Source: Escherichia phage HP3. From it: a stretch of 64,000 nt of DNA. Positions 10,513-20,740 of the stretch are shown here, piece by piece. The position numbers were made by a program, and so were the translations under genes. The stretch is taken from sequence record NC_041919.1; one strand, written 5' to 3'. The notes under the pieces were generated by a model, which was given only the letters and a program-made list of their open reading frames with translations, was not told where the DNA came from and searched no databases. The first letter of the stretch is position 1. Each line of letters opens with the position of its first letter.

Positions 10513-10828
10513 TATTCGTCCGGTCGATGAGACCGGGCTTTCAGAAAAAGAACTTTCAATTAAGAAAGAAAAGGATGAAATTGCAAAGCTTCTTGACCGC
10601 CAAGAAAATGGATTTATTATTGAAAAAATGGTAGAAGAGTTTGGAATGAGTTATCTTGAAGCTACAACAGCATTCTTAGAAGAAAATTCTATTCCTGAAA
10701 CTCAATTTGCTAAATTTATTCCTTCGGGTATAATTGAAAAAATTCAGTCAGAAGCCATTGACGAAAATCTTTTACGTCCTTCTGTTGTTCGTTGTGAAAA
10801 AACTAATACATTAGATTTTCTACTATGA
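10490..10828 (+). CDS. 33: gp33 late-transcription co-activator
   Basis: 112 aa from ATG 10490 (ORF track starts at TTG 10481); MTQFSLNDIRPVDETGLSEKEL...; between dsbA and 59 as in T4. Confidence 0.85.
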   Translation: MTQFSLNDIRPVDETGLSEKELSIKKEKDEIAKLLDRQENGFIIEKMVEEFGMSYLEATTAFLEENSIPETQFAKFIPSGIIEKIQSEAIDENLLRPSVVRCEKTNTLDFLL

Positions 10829-11478
10829 TTAAACTCCGCATGCCTGCTGGTGGTGAAAGATACATTGATGGTAAATCAGTTTATAAATTATACTTAATGA
10901 TAAAACAACATATGAATGGAAAGTATGATGTTATTAAGTATAATTGGTGCATGCGGGTGTCTGATGCCGCTTATCAAAAGCGAAGGGATAAGTATTTTTT
11001 CCAGAAGTTATCAGAAAAATATAAATTAAAGGAACTTGCTTTAATCTTTATAAGCAATCTTGTTGCTAACCAGGATGCTTGGATTGGCGACATCTCTGAC
11101 GCTGATGCACTTGTGTTTTATCGTGAATATATCGGACGCTTAAAGCAAATTAAATTTAAGTTTGAAGAAGATATTCGCAACATTTATTATTTTAGTAAAA
11201 AAGTTGAAGTTTCTGCTTTTAAAGAAATCTTTGAGTATAATCCAAAAGTTCAATCAAGTTATATTTTTAAACTACTTCAATCGAATATAATTTCGTTTGA
11301 AACGTTTATCTTGCTTGATTCGTTTTTAAATATAATTGATAAACATGATGAACAGACTGATAATTTAGTCTGGAATAATTATTCTATAAAGTTAAAGGCT
11401 TATAGAAAAATTTTAAATATTGATTCACAGAAAGCTAAAAGTGTTTTTATTGAAACTGTGAAATCTTGCAAGTATTGA
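10825..11478 (+). CDS. 59: gp59 helicase (gp41) loader
   Basis: 217 aa; MIKLRMPAGGERYIDGKSVYKLYLMIKQHMNGKYD... matches T4 gp59; start overlaps 33 stop (ATGA). Confidence 0.9.
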   Translation: MIKLRMPAGGERYIDGKSVYKLYLMIKQHMNGKYDVIKYNWCMRVSDAAYQKRRDKYFFQKLSEKYKLKELALIFISNLVANQDAWIGDISDADALVFYREYIGRLKQIKFKFEEDIRNIYYFSKKVEVSAFKEIFEYNPKVQSSYIFKLLQSNIISFETFILLDSFLNIIDKHDEQTDNLVWNNYSIKLKAYRKILNIDSQKAKSVFIETVKSCKY

Positions 11479-11479
11479 T

Positions 11480-12112
11480 ATGAATATAGTATATTGGTTT
11501 ACATTTGAAGACCGTGTCAAAAATAAGACTCCACCGTACTACTATATCGGTAGTAAATTAAATTGCTCATTTGAGAACGGAATAATATATGACTCTTCCG
11601 GAAAGGAATACTGGAGCTCATGTAAACAAAAAAGATTTTTGAATGCGCTAATGCTTCAAAAACCGAGCGTTAAAATAATTCAAATTGATGATGACTTGGA
11701 TGTTATTGAAGCAGAACGAAAATACCAACTTGAAGTAAATGCAAGAGATAATCCAGACTATTTTAATCTGGTATATGCTGGTGGTGGATTTGGTGTGAGT
11801 GGTGAAACTCATCCAGCCAAAGACCCGGAAGTTAGAGAGCATATGAGATTGGCTAATTATATGAACCGTGACGATTTTAGACCTTGGAAAACATCACGAG
11901 CTAATATAGAGTCTTGGAAATTATCTCATATTGCTTACGAGAATTATGTGTTATTATTATCCTCTAATCTGTACGGTAAAACTCCTGGATGGCGAAGAGT
12001 TAAAGGTAATATAAATATAACTGATACAACTGCTAAATCGATGGTAAAGTATTTCAACTTAGGTTGGATACCTCTCGAAGACCCAGAGTATTGCGAATTA
12101 TGCCAGCTATGA
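11480..12112 (+). CDS. GIY-YIG family endonuclease, free-standing homing-endonuclease-like (T4 segG position between 59 and 32)
   Basis: 210 aa; N-terminal IVYWFTF...PPYYYIGSK resembles the GIY...YIG module; occupies the 59/32 junction where T4 carries segG. Confidence 0.6.
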   Translation: MNIVYWFTFEDRVKNKTPPYYYIGSKLNCSFENGIIYDSSGKEYWSSCKQKRFLNALMLQKPSVKIIQIDDDLDVIEAERKYQLEVNARDNPDYFNLVYAGGGFGVSGETHPAKDPEVREHMRLANYMNRDDFRPWKTSRANIESWKLSHIAYENYVLLLSSNLYGKTPGWRRVKGNINITDTTAKSMVKYFNLGWIPLEDPEYCELCQL

Positions 12113-12166: not shown

Positions 12167-13072
12167 ATGTTTAAACGTAAATCTACTGCTGAACTTGCTG
12201 CACAAATGGCTAAACTGAATGGCAATAAAGGTTTTTCTTCTGAAGATAAAGGCGAGTGGAAACTGAAACTCGATAATGCGGGTAACGGTCAAGCAGTAAT
12301 TCGTTTTCTTCCGTCTAAAAATGATGAACAAGCACCATTCGCAATTCTTGTAAATCACGGTTTCAAGAAAAATGGTAAATGGTATATTGAAACATGTTCA
12401 TCTACCCATGGTGATTACGATTCTTGCCCAGTATGTCAATACATCAGTAAAAATGATCTGTACAACACTGACAATAAAGAGTACAGTCTTGTTAAACGTA
12501 AAACTTCTTACTGGGCTAATATTCTTGTTGTAAAAGACCCAGCTGCTCCAGAAAATGAAGGTAAAGTATTTAAATATCGTTTCGGTAAGAAAATCTGGGA
12601 TAAAATCAATGCAATGATTGCGGTTGATGTTGAAATGGGTGAAACTCCGGTTGATGTAACTTGTCCGTGGGAAGGTGCTAACTTTGTACTGAAAGTTAAA
12701 CAAGTTTCCGGATTTAGTAACTACGATGAATCTAAATTCCTGAATCAATCTGCGATTCCAAACATTGATGATGAATCTTTCCAGAAAGAACTGTTCGAAC
12801 AAATGGTTGACCTTTCTGAAATGACTTCTAAAGATAAATTCAAATCGTTTGAAGAACTGAGCACTAAGTTCAGTCAAGTTATGGGAACTGCTGCTATGGG
12901 TGGTGCCGCTGCAACTGCTGCTAAGAAAGCTGATAAAGTTGCTGATGATTTGGATGCATTCAATGTTGATGACTTCAATACAAAAACTGAAGATGATTTT
13001 ATGAGCTCAAGCTCTGGCAGTTCATCTAGTGCTGATGACACAGACCTGGATGACCTTTTGAATGACCTTTAA
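12167..13072 (+). CDS. 32: gp32 single-stranded DNA binding protein
   Basis: 301 aa; [49 protein letters not shown]... and acidic C-terminus match T4 gp32. Confidence 0.97.
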
Positions 13073-13120: not shown

Positions 13121-13143
13121 TTTCAAAAATTTTTCATAAAACG

Positions 13144-13173
13144 GTTTACATCCTTGTCCTTCCATGGTACTAT
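13144..13173 (+). promoter_or_regulatory. T4-type early promoter
   Basis: GTTTAC at 13144-13149, 18 nt spacer, TG-n-TACTAT -10 region; precedes the ORF at 13217. Confidence 0.5.
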
Positions 13174-13216
13174 ACAACTATCGGCAATACTGCTGATAAT
13201 TAAAGAGGAAAATAAT

Positions 13217-13444
13217 ATGGCTAAAGTTGATATTGACATCGTTGATTTTGAATATATTGAAGAAATTATTCGTAATCGTTATCCTGAACTTAGTATCACA
13301 AGTGTACAAGATTCTAAGTTTTGGAGTATTCAAATCGTTATTGAAGGTCCTTTAGAAGTTCTTGAGCGGTTTATGGCTAATGAATACTGCGATGGTATGG
13401 ATGCTGAAGACGTAGAATTTTACATGGGACTGATTGAACAATAA
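13217..13444 (+). CDS. hypothetical early protein (frd.3 position)
   Basis: 75 aa from ATG 13217 with AAGAGGAA Shine-Dalgarno; ORF-track start 13154 lies inside the promoter. Confidence 0.5.
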
Positions 13445-13489
13445 TTATCAAGGGGCTATTAAGCCCCTATTAAAATGAGGAAAATCAAA

Positions 13490-13876
13490 ATGGAAATCGG
13501 CAAAAAATACGAGTTAAATCCACATCGTATTAAATCTTTCATTGATATTAGTTCATCAAATGCTAGTATGGTCGGCATCATTCAAGAAAATGGCGGTTGG
13601 TTTGAAGTTAAATCAATATCAAGTTTAGATGGCTTTGATTATGTAACCGAAATCATTTGTGCTAATGGTGAAATCTATAATGATGATGGTATGGGTGATG
13701 ATTATTTTGAACTTAGTGAAGAAGAGTTTTATTGTTTCCGCGAATATAAAGAACCGACTTCTGAAGAGGATGAAGTCAAAGACAAGGTTTCTGGCGTAAC
13801 AAAAATTCACTGCATTGTTGACGAAAACAATGCAGATGAAATCATTGAACTTTTGCGAAAAACTTTCAAAAAGTAG
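13490..13876 (+). CDS. hypothetical early protein (frd.2 position)
   Basis: 128 aa from ATG 13490 preceded by GAGGA; acidic C-terminal part. Confidence 0.5.
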   Translation: MEIGKKYELNPHRIKSFIDISSSNASMVGIIQENGGWFEVKSISSLDGFDYVTEIICANGEIYNDDGMGDDYFELSEEEFYCFREYKEPTSEEDEVKDKVSGVTKIHCIVDENNADEIIELLRKTFKK

Positions 13877-13905
13877 TTTACATCAGGGTAGTAGTGTGAT
13901 ACTAT
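13876..13905 (+). promoter_or_regulatory. T4-type early promoter with flanking imperfect inverted repeat
   Basis: GTTTAC 13876-13881, 17-18 nt spacer, TGATACTAT -10; GGGTAGTAG...CTATTACCC inverted repeat brackets the -10. Confidence 0.45.
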
Positions 13906-13935
13906 TACCCTATCAAAACTAATGGAGAAAAGAAA

Positions 13936-14004
13936 ATGTTCGCACCTTATATTATGGCAGCAGTTATGTTGGTCTGTTTATATCTTTTGATTAAAGCTTG
14001 CTAA
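13936..14004 (+). CDS. very small hydrophobic peptide (22 aa)
   Basis: ATG 13936 preceded by GGAGAAAAG; translation MFAPYIMAAVMLVCLYLLIKAC, a single predicted membrane helix; downstream of an early promoter; below ORF-track size cut-off. Confidence 0.35.
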   Translation: MFAPYIMAAVMLVCLYLLIKAC

Positions 14005-14014
14005 GGAGAATAAA

Positions 14015-14257
14015 ATGAGATTACAACGTCAGAGTATCAAAGATTCAGAAGTTAGAGGTAAATGGTATTTTAATATCATCGGTAAAGATTCTGAACTTGT
14101 TGAAAAAGCTGAACATCTTTTACGTGATATGGGATGGGAAGATGAATGCGATGGATGTCCTCTTTATGAAGATGGAGAAAGCGCGGGATTTTGGATTTAC
14201 TATTCTGACGTTGAACAGTTTAAAGCTGATTGGAAAATTGTGAAAAAGTCTGTTTAA
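14015..14257 (+). CDS. hypothetical early protein (frd.1 position)
   Basis: 80 aa; AAGGAG Shine-Dalgarno; tight packing. Confidence 0.5.
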   Translation: MRLQRQSIKDSEVRGKWYFNIIGKDSELVEKAEHLLRDMGWEDECDGCPLYEDGESAGFWIYYSDVEQFKADWKIVKKSV

Positions 14258-15094: not shown

Positions 15095-15114
15095 AATAAC
15101 ACGTGGCGGAAAAT

Positions 15115-15462
15115 ATGAATTTTAATTATTACCCTATTCTATTAGAAGAAGACGCGAAACAGCCAAAGTGGCAGGGTCCTCAGTTTATTAAAGGTGTCTA
15201 TCAATTAGTAGTTCCTAAAGACAAGATTTATAGCAGTTGTTTCACTGAATCCGCTTGCAGTATTTTCGGTAATAGTTCTCCGTATTGGAATTTTGACATA
15301 AAGCTGGATAGAAATATCGATATTTGGTTGAAAGCTATGGATATTGGTAATATCACGTTTGATGAGAATAATTATCATATTATTGGTCGCTTTTCCAAAC
15401 GCGGTAAAGAATTATATTTCACGCCTGAAATTGAGAGAAAATTTGATGCTAAACCGTATTGA
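15115..15462 (+). CDS. hypothetical protein inserted between frd and td
   Basis: 115 aa from ATG 15115 (ORF track starts at GTG 15103); no motif recognised; sits where T4 frd and td abut. Confidence 0.5.
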   Translation: MNFNYYPILLEEDAKQPKWQGPQFIKGVYQLVVPKDKIYSSCFTESACSIFGNSSPYWNFDIKLDRNIDIWLKAMDIGNITFDENNYHIIGRFSKRGKELYFTPEIERKFDAKPY

Positions 15463-15507: not shown

Positions 15508-16056
15508 ATGAAACAATACCAAGATTTAATTAAAGACATTTTTGAAAATGGCTATGAAACTGATGACCGAACGGGCACAGGAACAATTGCTTTGTTCGGT
15601 ACTAAATTACGCTGGGATTTAACTAAAGGTTTTCCTGCAGTAACAACTAAGAAGCTCGCCTGGAAAGCTTGCATTGCTGAGCTACTTTGGTTTTTATCAG
15701 GAAGCACAAATGTCAATGATTTACGATTAATTCAGCATGATTCGTTAATCCAAGGCAAAACAGTTTGGGATGAAAATTACGAAAATCAGGCAAAAGATTT
15801 AGGATACCATAGTGGTGAACTTGGCCCAATTTATGGAAAACAGTGGCGCGATTTTGGCGGTGTAGACCAAATTATAGAAGTTATTGATCGTATTAAAAAA
15901 CTACCAAGTGATAGGCGTCAAATTGTTTCTGCGTGGAATCCAGCTGAACTTAAATATATGGCATTACCACCTTGTCATATGTTCTATCAGTTTAATGTGC
16001 GTAATGGTTATCTTGATTTACAATGGTATCAACGCAGTGTAGATGTTTTCTTGGGT
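15508..16056 (+). CDS. td: thymidylate synthase, exon 1
   Basis: 183 codons MKQYQDLIKDIFENGYETDDRTGTGT...QRSVDVFLG; reading frame broken by an in-frame TAA at the 5' splice site after ...TTGGGT. Confidence 0.9.
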
Positions 16057-16376
16057 TAATTGAGGCCTAGGTATAAGGTGACTTATACTTGTAATCTATC
16101 TAAACGGGGGACCTCTCTAGTAGACAATCCCGTGCTAAATTGTAGGACTACCCTTTAATAATTTCATCAGGATTAGTTACTTACCGTGTAAAATCTGATA
16201 AATGGAATTGGTTCTACATAAATGCCTAACGACTATCCCTTTGGGGAGTAGGGTCAAGTGACTCGAAACGATAGACAACTTGCTTTAACAAGTTGAAGAT
16301 ATAGTCTGATCTGCATGGTGACATGCAGCTGGATATAATTCCGGGGTAAGATTAACGACCTTATCTGAACATAATG
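16057..16376 (+). ncRNA. group I self-splicing intron in td, lacking a homing endonuclease ORF
   Basis: Starts TAATTGAGGCC..., ends ...CTGAACATAATG with terminal G; conserved td-intron core segments (GGTGACTTATACTTGTAATCTATCTAAACGGGG, CCCTTTGGGGAGTAGGGTCAAGTGACTCGAAACGATAGACAACTTGC, CATGGTGACATGCAGCTGGATATAATTCCGGGGTAAGATTAACGACC); 320 nt, no ORF >= 60 aa in any frame. Confidence 0.85.
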
Positions 16377-16688
16377 CTTCCATTTAATATTGCATCATAT
16401 GCTACGTTAGTTCATATTGTAGCTAAGATGTGTAATCTTATTCCGGGAGATTTGATATTTTCCGGTGGTAATACTCATATCTATATGAATCACGTAGAAC
16501 AATGTAAAGAAATTTTGCGTCGTGAACCTAAAGAGCTTTGTGAACTGGTAATAGGCGGATTGCCTTATAAATTCCGCTATCTTTCTACTAAAGAACAATT
16601 GGAATACATTCTTAAACTCAGGCCTAAAGATTTCGTTCTCAAAGATTATCAGTCCCACGGCGTCTTGAAAGGAAAAATGGCGGTGTAA
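16377..16688 (+). CDS. td: thymidylate synthase, exon 2
   Basis: LPFNIASYATLVHIVAKMCNLIPGDLIFSGGNTHIYMNHVEQ... continues the TS fold; exons 1+2 give 286 aa, as in T4 TS. Confidence 0.9.
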   Translation, partial: LPFNIASYATLVHIVAKMCNLIPGDLIFSGGNTHIYMNHVEQCKEILRREPKELCELVIGGLPYKFRYLSTKEQLEYILKLRPKDFVLKDYQSHGVLKGKMAV

Positions 16689-16975: not shown

Positions 16976-17255
16976 ATATAAATCCGACTTTGATGTCAAT
17001 ATTCACCGCGGTACATTTTGGGGAAATTACGTCGGTAAAGATGCTGGCAGCCGGGAGGCTGCCATTGAATTATTCAAAAAAGATTTTATACGTCGAATTA
17101 AATCCGGAGAAATAACTAAAGCACATTTAGAGCCTTTACGTGGAATGAGGCTAGGATGCACATGTAAACCAAAGCCGTGTCATGGTGATATAATAGCTCA
17201 TATAGTTAACCGATTGTTTAAAGACGATTTTCAAGTTGAGGACTTATGCAATTAA
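16929..17255 (+). CDS. hypothetical protein with Cys/His cluster (nrdA.1 position)
   Basis: 108 aa; ...[12 protein letters not shown]...; start uncertain because it overlaps the preceding ORF by 47 nt; stop overlaps nrdA start. Confidence 0.45.
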
Positions 17256-19510
17256 TTAATGTTATCAAAAGTAGTGGTGTTTCTCAGAGCTTTGACCCGC
17301 AAAAAATTATTAAAGTTTTATCTTGGGCAGCTGAGGGAACATCAGTAGATCCTTATGAATTATATGAAAATATTAAATCATATCTCCGTGATGGAATGAC
17401 AACTGATGACATTCAGACTATTGTCATTAAGGCTGCTGCGAATTCTATTTCGGTTGAAGAACCTGATTATCAATATGTAGCTGCACGTTGTTTAATGTTT
17501 GCTCTTCGTAAGCATGTTTATGGGCAGTATGAACCACGTTCATTTATTGACCATATTTCTTACTGTGTAAATGAAGGTAAATATGACCCCGAATTATTGT
17601 CAAAATATTCAGCAGAAGAAATTACATTTTTAGAATCAAAAATTAAGCACGAACGGGATATGGAATTTACTTATTCCGGGGCGATGCAATTAAAAGAAAA
17701 ATATCTAGTTAAAGATAAAACCACTGGTCAAATTTATGAAACTCCACAGTTTGCATTTATGACTATTGGAATGGCATTGCATCAAGATGAACCTGTTGAT
17801 AGATTAAAACATGTTATTCGTTTTTATGAAGCAGTATCTACTCGACAGATTTCATTACCAACTCCTATTATGGCTGGTTGCCGTACTCCGACTCGACAGT
17901 TCAGTTCATGCGTTGTTATTGAGGCAGGAGATTCATTGAAGTCTATCAATAAGGCTTCCGCTTCGATTGTTGAATATATCTCTAAACGCGCTGGAATTGG
18001 TATTAACGTTGGTATGATTCGTGCTGAAGGTTCTAAGATTGGCATGGGTGAAGTACGCCATACTGGTGTTATTCCTTTTTGGAAACATTTTCAGACTGCT
18101 GTTAAATCATGTTCACAGGGTGGAATTCGTGGCGGCGCTGCTACTGCTTATTATCCTATTTGGCATTTGGAAGTTGAAAATCTTCTCGTTTTGAAAAATA
18201 ACAAAGGCGTAGAAGAAAACCGCATTCGTCATATGGATTATGGTGTTCAACTGAATGATTTGATGATGGAACGATTCGGAAAGAACGATTACATTACTTT
18301 GTTCAGTCCGCATGAAATGGGTGGAGAGCTTTATTATTCTTATTTTAAAGACAAAGACCGTTTCCGTGAATTATACGAAGCAGCAGAAAAAGACCCTAAT
18401 ATTCGTAAAAAGCGTATTAAAGCCCGTGAACTATTTGAATTGCTCATGACTGAACGTTCAGGAACAGCAAGGATTTATGTACAGTTCATTGATAATACGA
18501 ATAACTATACTCCGTTTATTCGTGAAAAGGCACCTATTCGTCAGAGTAACTTGTGCTGTGAAATTGCTATTCCAACAAATGATGTGAATAGTCCTGATGC
18601 TGAAATTGGATTGTGTACTCTCTCTGCATTCGTACTAGATAATTTTGACTGGCAAGACCAAGATAAAATTAATGAATTGGCAGAAGTTCAAGTTCGTGCT
18701 CTTGATAATCTGTTGGATTACCAAGGATATCCAGTTCCTGAAGCAGAAAAAGCTAAAAAGCGTCGAAATCTTGGCGTAGGTGTTACCAACTATGCAGCTT
18801 GGCTGGCAAGTAACTTTGCTTCTTATGAAGATGCTAACGATTTAACGCATGAACTATTTGAGAGATTACAGTATGGACTCATTAAAGCATCCATTAAGCT
18901 CGCCAAAGAAAAAGGACCTTGCGAATATTATTCAGACACTCGTTGGTCTCGAGGCGAATTACCTATCGACTGGTACAATAAAAAGATTGACCAAATCGCA
19001 GCTCCAAAATACGTTTGTGACTGGTCGTCGCTGCGGGAAGACCTTAAGCTCTTTGGCATCCGTAATAGCACATTATCAGCACTTATGCCATGTGAGTCAT
19101 CTTCCCAAGTTTCTAACAGTACAAACGGTATCGAGCCTCCACGTGGACCAGTCTCTGTTAAAGAATCAAAAGAGGGCTCCTTTAATCAAGTCGTGCCCAA
19201 TATTGAGCATAACATAGACCTTTACGACTATACATGGAAATTAGCTAAGAAAGGTAATAAACCTTATCTTACGCAGGTAGCTATTATGCTGAAATGGGTA
19301 TGTCAATCAGCTTCAGCGAATACATATTATGACCCGCAGATTTTTCCAAAAGGAAAGGTTCCAATGTCAATAATGATTGATGACATGCTATACGGGTGGT
19401 ATTATGGCATTAAAAATTTCTATTATCATAATACCCGTGATGGTTCTGGTACTGATGATTATGAAATAGAAACTCCAAAAGCTGAAGATTGTTCATCCTG
19501 TAAATTATGA
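17246..19510 (+). CDS. nrdA: aerobic ribonucleotide reductase large subunit
   Basis: 754 aa, same length as T4 NrdA; recognisable class I RNR alpha sequence. Confidence 0.95.
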   Translation: MQLINVIKSSGVSQSFDPQKIIKVLSWAAEGTSVDPYELYENIKSYLRDGMTTDDIQTIVIKAAANSISVEEPDYQYVAARCLMFALRKHVYGQYEPRSFIDHISYCVNEGKYDPELLSKYSAEEITFLESKIKHERDMEFTYSGAMQLKEKYLVKDKTTGQIYETPQFAFMTIGMALHQDEPVDRLKHVIRFYEAVSTRQISLPTPIMAGCRTPTRQFSSCVVIEAGDSLKSINKASASIVEYISKRAGIGINVGMIRAEGSKIGMGEVRHTGVIPFWKHFQTAVKSCSQGGIRGGAATAYYPIWHLEVENLLVLKNNKGVEENRIRHMDYGVQLNDLMMERFGKNDYITLFSPHEMGGELYYSYFKDKDRFRELYEAAEKDPNIRKKRIKARELFELLMTERSGTARIYVQFIDNTNNYTPFIREKAPIRQSNLCCEIAIPTNDVNSPDAEIGLCTLSAFVLDNFDWQDQDKINELAEVQVRALDNLLDYQGYPVPEAEKAKKRRNLGVGVTNYAAWLASNFASYEDANDLTHELFERLQYGLIKASIKLAKEKGPCEYYSDTRWSRGELPIDWYNKKIDQIAAPKYVCDWSSLREDLKLFGIRNSTLSALMPCESSSQVSNSTNGIEPPRGPVSVKESKEGSFNQVVPNIEHNIDLYDYTWKLAKKGNKPYLTQVAIMLKWVCQSASANTYYDPQIFPKGKVPMSIMIDDMLYGWYYGIKNFYYHNTRDGSGTDDYEIETPKAEDCSSCKL

Positions 19511-19561
19511 TATAATTTGACTCACGGACGAGTCACCAACTATTAACTAAGTGGAAAATTT

Positions 19562-20740
19562 ATGAGCACAGTTTTTAATACAAACCCAGTTGATGTTTTA
19601 AAAGAACCTATGTTTTTTGGTTCAGGTCTTGGTATTGCGCGTTATGATATTCAACGGCATCGAGTATTTGAAGAACTTACAGAGAAGTCCTTATCATTTT
19701 TCTGGCGCCCGGAAGAAGTAAACTTAATGATGGATGCTGCACAGTTTAATAAGCTTCCTCAGTATCAGCAAAATATTTTTACTAACAACTTGAAGTATCA
19801 ATCACTTTTGGATAGCATTCAGGGTCGTGCGCCGTCTGCTGTACTTATGTCATTAATTTCAGACCCAAGCCTTGATACGTGGATTGCTACATGGACTTTT
19901 AGTGAAACTATTCACAGTCGTTCATATACACATATCATGCGAAATCTTTATACTGATCCATCGAAGGTATTTGATGAGATTGTATTAGATGAAGCTATTA
20001 TGAAACGTGCTGAATCCATTGGACGTTATTATGATGATGTTCTGATTAAAACTCGTGAATGGGAAAATGCTAAAGAATTTGTAGAACTATCTAAAGAATC
20101 TCCTGATGCCGACTTTCGTTTAAACCGAGCTATTAAACAAGAAGCCGAAGCTAAACGTGCTTTAATGAAATCTCTTTACCTCTGTTTGCACGTTATTAAT
20201 GCATTAGAAGCTATTCGTTTTTATGTATCCTTTGCGTGTACCTTTAACTTCCATAAGAACATGGAAATCATGGAAGGTAATGCCAAGATTATGAAGTTCA
20301 TTGCGCGTGATGAGCAGCTTCATCTTAAAGGCACCCAATATATTATTCGTCAACTTCAACTTGGCACTGATGGCGATGAATGGGTTAAAATTGCTCAAGA
20401 GTGTGAACAAGAAGCAGTTGATATTTTCATGGAAGTTAACCGCCAAGAAAAAGATTGGGCAGTTCATTTATTTAAAGATGGAGATGTTCCTGGATTAAAT
20501 ACAAATAGCATGTGGAGCTTTATTGATTACTTAACTGTATCTCGTATGAAGCAGTGTGGTCTTCCATGCCCAATTACCGATGCTCCGGTTAAACATCCAT
20601 ATCCTTGGATTCGTGAATATCTTAATTCTGATAATGTTCAATCTGCACCACAAGAAGTAGAATTGTCATCTTACCTTGTTGCACAGATTGATAATGATGT
20701 TGATGATAAAGTTATGATGAGTTTTAAAAAATACTTTTAA
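19562..20740 (+). CDS. nrdB: aerobic ribonucleotide reductase small subunit (uninterrupted)
   Basis: 392 aa continuous ORF with recognisable R2 sequence; no intron. Confidence 0.95.
   Translation: MSTVFNTNPVDVLKEPMFFGSGLGIARYDIQRHRVFEELTEKSLSFFWRPEEVNLMMDAAQFNKLPQYQQNIFTNNLKYQSLLDSIQGRAPSAVLMSLISDPSLDTWIATWTFSETIHSRSYTHIMRNLYTDPSKVFDEIVLDEAIMKRAESIGRYYDDVLIKTREWENAKEFVELSKESPDADFRLNRAIKQEAEAKRALMKSLYLCLHVINALEAIRFYVSFACTFNFHKNMEIMEGNAKIMKFIARDEQLHLKGTQYIIRQLQLGTDGDEWVKIAQECEQEAVDIFMEVNRQEKDWAVHLFKDGDVPGLNTNSMWSFIDYLTVSRMKQCGLPCPITDAPVKHPYPWIREYLNSDNVQSAPQEVELSSYLVAQIDNDVDDKVMMSFKKYF

Follow-up and report, generated by a model that had tools for sequence, protein, structure and literature searches.

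The thymidylate synthase gene (td) of the window (the whole 64,000-nt stretch of phage DNA analysed here) is interrupted by a compact group I intron, very probably the td intron of the T-even phages from which one 696-bp deletion removed most of the gene for the homing endonuclease I-TevI, while the ribozyme was left whole and is predicted to remain capable of splicing. The earlier note, which proposed a compact td group I intron with an intact conserved core and without a functional homing-endonuclease gene, is supported in this respect by the Rfam search, the alignment with the T4 intron and the count of base pairs. The feature is real and ordinary, i.e., an expected and documented stage of selfish introns: the decay of homing-endonuclease genes in T-even introns has already been published, and the exact td sequence of the window is already public. 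By its sequence, the phage is a Tequatrovirus (T4-like coliphage) essentially identical to Escherichia phages HP3.1 and HP3.2; over td (region 15508-16688), identity is 100% with both and 96-99.8% with many other T4-like phages.

The split td gene and its ribozyme

Exon 1 of td occupies 15508..16056 (+ strand, 183 codons) and exon 2 occupies 16377..16688 (+ strand, 103 codons and the stop); in the list of open reading frames, the two halves appear as 15508-16059 (183 aa) and 16374-16688. The frame is closed by TAA at 16057-16059, directly after the end of exon 1 (...TTCTTGGGT at 16056), and exon 2 opens with CTTCCATTT at 16377, after the intron end ...AACATAATG at 16376. The stop right after ...TTGGGT and the resumption past 320 nt had been described in the earlier note, and reading of the sequence bears out both to the base. 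The joined exons yield a 286-aa thymidylate synthase covered by the Pfam profile Thymidylat_synt (PF00303) at positions 1-266 of 266 (317 bits, E 1e-94), so the removal of the intron restores the uninterrupted host frame. Relative to T4, 66 of the 861 exon nucleotides differ (92.3% identity) but only 11 amino acids are changed, 55 of the 66 differences leaving the amino acids as they were; this disproportion indicates purifying selection on a product whose synthesis requires precise splicing. Still, since thyA+ hosts do not strictly require the td of the phage, the conservation of the exons argues for splicing less strongly than it would in an essential gene.

The intron itself (16057..16376, + strand, 320 nt) was identified as an orthologue of the T4 td intron with Rfam and by alignment to T4. 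It starts with UAAUUGAGG and ends with ...AUAAUG, the terminal G (omega-G) being located at 16376, before the 3' splice site, and invariant across the aligned alleles. The flanks of the insertion are in the same register as in T4, i.e., ...TTCTTGGGT upstream and CT(T/A)CC(A/G)TTT downstream. A search with the group I intron model, one of the checks proposed in the earlier note, returned a full-length match to RF00028 (Intron_gpI) at 16047-16328 (model positions 1-253 of 253, 70.3 bits, E 8.1e-16; the gathering score is 50 bits). It is the sole Rfam match across the 64 kb window, and no second intron was found by Rfam anywhere in it. The full-length T4 intron and the 445-nt intron of phage G28 are not reported by Rfam at the gathering threshold, which is attributed to their large L6a insert. 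Over the retained 318 nt, the intron is 97.2% identical to that of T4 (9 mismatches) vs. 92.3% for the exons; it is more conserved than the exons, consistent with horizontal transfer of the intron between phages.

The internal guide sequence GCCUAG (16065..16070, + strand), representing the 3' strand of P1, pairs with the exon UUGGGU (16051-16056) and forms the U16056.G16065 wobble at the 5' splice site; the helix is 100% paired in 11 alleles. In comparison with T4, the guide sequence harbors a GA->AG swap converting U-G and U-A into U-A and U-G, so that both pairs are kept. Unconstrained folding of the 320 nt by minimum free energy (MFE) yields P2, P3, P4, P5, P6, P6a (10 bp), P7.1, P7.2, P8, and P9. 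According to the MFE fold and the pair count, the 5' strand of P6a (UGUAGGACUA) spans 16141..16150 (+ strand), and the 3' strands of P6a (16209-16218) and P6 (16224-16225) lie within 16209..16225 (+ strand), in the last I-TevI codons. The 3' half of the catalytic core (16231..16328, + strand), supported by Rfam, the fold and the pairs, comprises P7 (16231-16235 with 16302-16306, a pseudoknot), P7.1, P7.2, P3' (16270-16275), P8 (16276-16295), and P9 (16311-16328), all on the + strand.

To quantify the pairing, 68 pairs (P1-P9, with P7 as a pseudoknot) were written out and counted in 11 aligned natural deletion alleles. In the window, 68 of 68 modelled pairs are standard, a figure which is partly circular since the model was built from the window sequence; the informative controls are the ten remaining alleles and the registers with shifted partners. 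Across the 11 alleles, 99.4% of pair cells are standard vs. 31-42% after a shift of the 3' partners by 1-3 columns, and the variation consists of wobble changes and one compensatory A-U -> U-A change in P8. The conserved core, i.e., the P4-P6 and P3-P7-P8 domains including the P3/P7 pseudoknot, is kept with all its pairs standard; a disruption of the P3-P9 elements, named in the earlier note as an outcome that would speak against the intron, is absent.

The I-TevI remnant and its likely parent lineage

The deletion was mapped by alignment to phage T4T, in which the intron is 1016 nt long and I-TevI is located at intron nt 132-869. Nucleotides 1-105 of the window intron align with nt 1-105 of the T4 intron, and nt 104-320 with its nt 800-1016; the window intron is the T4 td intron minus nt 106-801, with exactly 696 nt gone. 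The alignment with T4, likewise proposed in the earlier note, has in this way delimited the ORF deletion. The lost part includes 26 nt of the leader next to the ATG, the ribosome-binding region, and the first ~223 I-TevI codons. The crossover took place inside an AA dinucleotide (2-nt microhomology, window 16160-16161), which is situated inside an imperfect repeat (TTTAATAA at the 5' side and TTTTAAAA at the 3' side). Slippage or illegitimate recombination typically leaves such an arrangement, and the deletion presumably arose by one of these processes at the microhomology.

What is left of the endonuclease gene begins with a remnant of its untranslated leader (CCCTTTAATA, 10-11 nt, 16151..16160, + strand), which ends in the deletion junction. 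Next to it is a 69-nt remnant of I-TevI (16161..16229, + strand), consisting of the last 22 sense codons (ISSGLVTYRVKSDKWNWFYINA) and TAA, all in frame (ATT TCA TCA GGA ... GCC TAA). In the window sequence, no in-frame ATG, GTG or TTG is found from the upstream stop TAG at 16143-16145 into the remnant, so the latter is neither an ORF nor translatable. Hence, there is no intact endonuclease ORF within the intron, only 22 C-terminal codons and the stop being left; the intact endonuclease ORF characteristic of a mobile intron is missing, as are an in-frame start codon and the leader. Loop L6a comprises 58 nt (16151-16208) vs. 754 nt in T4, and the remnant of ~55 nt described in the earlier note at the site of the I-TevI ORF was about right. 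The I-TevI-derived stretch, at 69 nt, is longer than its L6a share, since the last 21 nt of the ORF (UGG UUC UAC AUA AAU GCC UAA) reside within the P6a and P6 helices. The survival of these 21 nt is explained by their role as the 3' halves of the P6a and P6 helices; likewise, every natural deletion stops upstream of these strands because the ribozyme needs them.

The remnant differs from T4 at three positions, all of them synonymous third positions. This three-of-three count was considered as a proof of selection preceding the deletion and dropped, since one of the differences (TAT->TAC) varies within the 320-nt class. Better evidence of ancestry is provided by an intact allele possessing all three synonymous variants. 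It was discovered by a scan for the variant I-TevI tail, which yielded one contig: the metagenome contig NFYZ01006445.1 (L015), with an intact 1016-nt td intron at 13141-14156. The encoded I-TevI is identical to that of T4 at 217 of 245 amino acids (88.6%), and 91 of 738 nt differ (87.7% nucleotide identity). This allele has all seven variants separating nt 1-130 of the window intron from T4, i.e., AG in the internal guide sequence (GA->AG, two bases), A->G in J4/5, A94 atop P6a, and the codons TCA, TCA, and TAC. Likely, L015 marks the parent lineage of the window intron. The shared variants argue that the latter descends, by deletion, from a diverged lineage bearing I-TevI and not from T4's own allele; it is also mosaic, as its 3' half is nearer to T4-type alleles. 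In the ribozyme parts, identity between L015 and the window is ~98%; the core of the intron is far more conserved than the endonuclease gene within it. In IMG/VR viral contigs, both the deletion junction and the intact allele with the variant I-TevI tail gave zero matches.

Distribution of the deletion alleles and the td neighborhood

The 320-nt intron (319 nt in one case) and the identical junction are shared by 15 GenBank phage records, namely HP3.1, HP3.2, SYGD1, U115, ESh30, L14, Pinarejo, Elenatom, C2-3, 235Ecol030PP, Shinka, 101112UKE3-1, PYps55T, MLP2, and UPWr_E2, with origins including the USA, Spain, Poland, and Germany. Their introns diverge by 0-1.6%, and their td regions by up to 3.6%. 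A junction common to 15 records points to one deletion event with subsequent spread.

At the same time, at least 34 of about 260-290 intron-matching GenBank phage records have a deleted I-TevI. Judging by the differing junctions, at least four further independent I-TevI deletions have occurred in related phages, i.e., at least five together with the window allele. The 445-nt allele (G28, e11/2) was deleted between exact 9-bp repeats CATTTTAAA and retains an annotated 55-codon stub; the introns of FL18, F1, and FN are of the same length as in G28. In the 315-nt allele of Klebsiella phage EI, the junction reads ATGAAAAG/TGGAAT. The 262-263-nt allele (215Ecol030PP, BYEP01; PD112 and CE1 have introns of this length) has L6a cut to the tetraloop UUUG, and in the 254-nt allele (CJY920 and N2, intron region 1201-1454; three more records have an intron of this length), a short GUUC-UUUU-GAAC hairpin takes the place of P6a and L6a. 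The 254-, 262-, and 315-nt alleles pass the Rfam threshold with 64-76 bits, the 254-nt form having the highest score (75.7 bits). Altogether, the natural series of 254, 262, 315, 320, and 445 nt maps the tolerance of the td ribozyme in P6a/L6a, and the deletion alleles represent markers for the exchange of introns and exons among therapeutic T4-like phages such as HP3.

The hairpin of the 254-nt allele in CJY920 and N2 cannot be derived from T4 by one simple deletion; this allele may have arisen by a secondary rearrangement, or it may represent a distinct form of the intron, perhaps one predating the invasion. In N2 (ON645936.1), a gene annotated as "endonuclease I-TevI" resides at 2024-2654 of the locus, on the minus strand (opposite to td), just downstream of td and nrdA.2. 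It is possibly a free-standing relative of I-TevI beside an endonuclease-less td intron and, as such, a candidate for collaborative homing.

In the window, td is accompanied by frd, an ORF of phrog_1928, nrdA.2, nrdA.1, nrdA, and nrdB. No free-standing homing-endonuclease gene was found beside td, only nrdA.2 and nrdA.1 being present between td and nrdA-nrdB; hence, the window is outside the collaborative (trans-homing) arrangement. The nearest homing-endonuclease gene is free-standing and located 3.4 kb upstream of td, at 11480-12112 (+ strand), between the homologue of gene 59 (10825-11478) and gene 32 (12167-13072), which is the position of segG in T4. Its 210-aa product matches phrog_7504 ("homing endonuclease") with E 2.5e-133. 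This gene was considered as a trans-mobilizer of the td intron and set aside, there being no evidence of its targeting td. The ORF between frd and td (15103-15462, + strand, 119 aa, GTG start) belongs to phrog_1928 and is annotated as 115 aa in HP3.1; Pfam returned nothing for this ORF or for the phrog_7504 endonuclease, whereas PHROGs matched both. In T4, frd and td overlap directly, unlike in the window, where this ORF lies between them. The slot is variable: PM107, PYps55T, and C2-3 possess a different 207-nt ORF, G28 possesses none, and L015 harbors the window-type ORF. Where such optional genes flank td, intron homing could have less exon homology to draw on. Further downstream, a gap of 51 nt separates nrdA (17246-19510) from an uninterrupted nrdB (19562-20740, 392 aa); unlike in T4, no nrdB intron, I-TevIII or mobE is present at 17246-20740 of the window.

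In the records of HP3.1, Elenatom, and Klebsiella phage EI, td is represented by two separate "thymidylate synthase" CDSs with no intron feature. Three "hypothetical proteins" of ~33 aa are called inside the intron in the Elenatom record, and the EI record bears the note "dTMP synthase, with intron of plasmid pMTL007C-E2", probably arising from an engineered plasmid carrying the td intron. The annotation of these phages is correctable to a joined td CDS with an intron feature.

Alternative readings, expected behavior and known systems

The earlier note allowed for an endonuclease gene either lost or never acquired by the intron. The former part stands: together, the in-frame I-TevI tail and the leader remnant show that the gene was lost, and the intact allele of the metagenome agrees with it. 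The latter part does not. An ancestral ORF-less td intron, to which I-TevI of T4 would be a later insertion into L6a, accords with the existence of endonuclease-lacking group I introns in T4-related phages (PMC2993671) and with the 254-nt CJY920/N2 alleles, whose hairpin is not a simple deletion product. For the window allele, such an origin is extremely improbable, being refuted by the in-frame tail: 48 nt of L6a are I-TevI codons running to the I-TevI stop, and ~10 nt of the leader are kept as well, whereas a pre-invasion intron would have neither leader nor tail. L015, in addition, documents an intact allele with the same diagnostic variants. The chance that the deletion is not a natural allele but an artefact of assembly or sequencing, or a laboratory construct, is practically negligible. 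Suspicion may be raised by the HP3.1 record, which is identical to the window and gives in vitro directed evolution as its origin, and by the ORF-deleted td introns of engineered plasmids, e.g., pMTL007C-E2 named in the record of Klebsiella phage EI, but the same junction recurs in 15 independently sequenced records from several countries with 0-1.6% divergence of the intron.

A decaying, splicing-defective relic, with td as a split pseudogene tolerated thanks to the host ThyA, is improbable, though less so than the two preceding alternatives. It would be compatible with the dispensability of td on thyA+ hosts, with the public annotation of td as two separate CDSs, and with the substitutions in the guide sequence and J4/5. 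The latter also count against the best explanation, since the window subclade combines J4/5 A->G (16110) with the guide GA->AG swap, changes that may bear on the rate of splicing. However, both changes are present in the intact L015 allele, the J4/5 G recurs in BYEP01, and the swap in the guide sequence retains both pairs. The relic is also at odds with exons which are both open and, when joined, match the full Pfam profile, with the predominantly silent divergence of the exons from T4 (55 of 66 differences), and with the preservation of every helix pair, the natural alleles displaying wobble and compensatory changes, not disruption.

Under the preferred reading, i.e., the loss of I-TevI from a T-even td intron, a single 696-bp deletion took the I-TevI leader, the ribosome-binding region, and the first ~223 codons; the ribozyme remained whole, with P1-P9 intact and the former 754-nt L6a reduced to 58 nt. 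Splicing would begin with an attack of exogenous G at 16056/16057, immediately past the U.G pair of P1, whereupon the terminal G (16376) would dock and the exons would be ligated to encode the full-length thymidylate synthase. Given its homology to the T4 td intron and its intact structure, the intron should self-splice as the latter does, in two transesterifications.

Without I-TevI, the intron is expected to be unable to home autonomously; it would be transmitted vertically, by ordinary recombination of the flanking exons, or in trans with I-TevI from a co-infecting phage. For tdDelta1-3, a laboratory td intron donor with deleted I-TevI, homing was 1%, compared with 33% when the intron was intact (PMC1865063). 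Exon 1 of the window keeps CAACG, the cleavage motif of I-TevI, at 16030-16034 (-27 to -23 from the insertion site). The td allele should nevertheless stay immune to I-TevI cleavage, because the intron splits the recognition site, parting CAACG from its half in exon 2; this expectation draws on the established knowledge of I-TevI.

Premature translation of I-TevI impairs td splicing (PMC2988022), so the phage may be unaffected by losing the ORF or may profit slightly from it. A more far-reaching and rather doubtful idea is that the loss was selected for, due to the gain in splicing and ~0.7 kb less DNA, the intron turning into an "immunity plug", i.e., a domesticated 320-nt resistance allele which is spreading. 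It is suggested by at least five independent deletions all stopping short of the 3' strands of P6a and P6. If this were true, ribosome traffic would no longer enter the intron core, improving the splicing of td, the gene would be uncleavable by I-TevI of co-infecting phages, and the 320-nt allele would spread across td regions differing by up to 3.6%. An I-TevI-free, cleavage-immune td allele could also sway the outcome of co-infection in phage cocktails.

The closest known system is the T4 td intron with I-TevI, a GIY-YIG endonuclease. The window intron has in common with it the gene, the insertion site after ...CTTGGGT, the first and last bases, and the P1-P9 architecture including P7.1 and P7.2; it differs in the absence of nt 106-801, of the endonuclease and of autonomous homing, and in nt 1-130, which display the variants of the L015 lineage instead of those of T4. 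Other natural I-TevI deletions represent the same intron with the endonuclease gene partly or wholly gone and the core kept, but with different junctions. The survey of T-even introns by Sandegren and Sjoberg in 2004 is said to have encountered several intron endonuclease genes with inactivating deletions. The engineered tdDelta1-3, which served as a control unable to home (PMC1865063), is likewise a td intron with a deleted ORF, whereas the window allele is natural and common to 15 GenBank records. In the T4 nrdB intron, a truncated and defunct I-TevIII has been described (Eddy and Gold 1991, as cited in PMC2790892 and PMC2993671). As in the window, it is a T-even group I intron in which the endonuclease gene was inactivated by an internal deletion and the ribozyme persists, but the gene, the intron, and the endonuclease family (HNH) are different; moreover, the defunct nrdB intron is mobilized in trans by the adjacent mobE, and td of the window is without such a neighbor. 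The life-cycle model of homing endonucleases comprises invasion, fixation, degeneration of the endonuclease gene, and loss (PMC5009752). The window allele corresponds, with no difference in kind, to the stage at which this gene has degenerated or been deleted and the intron is retained.
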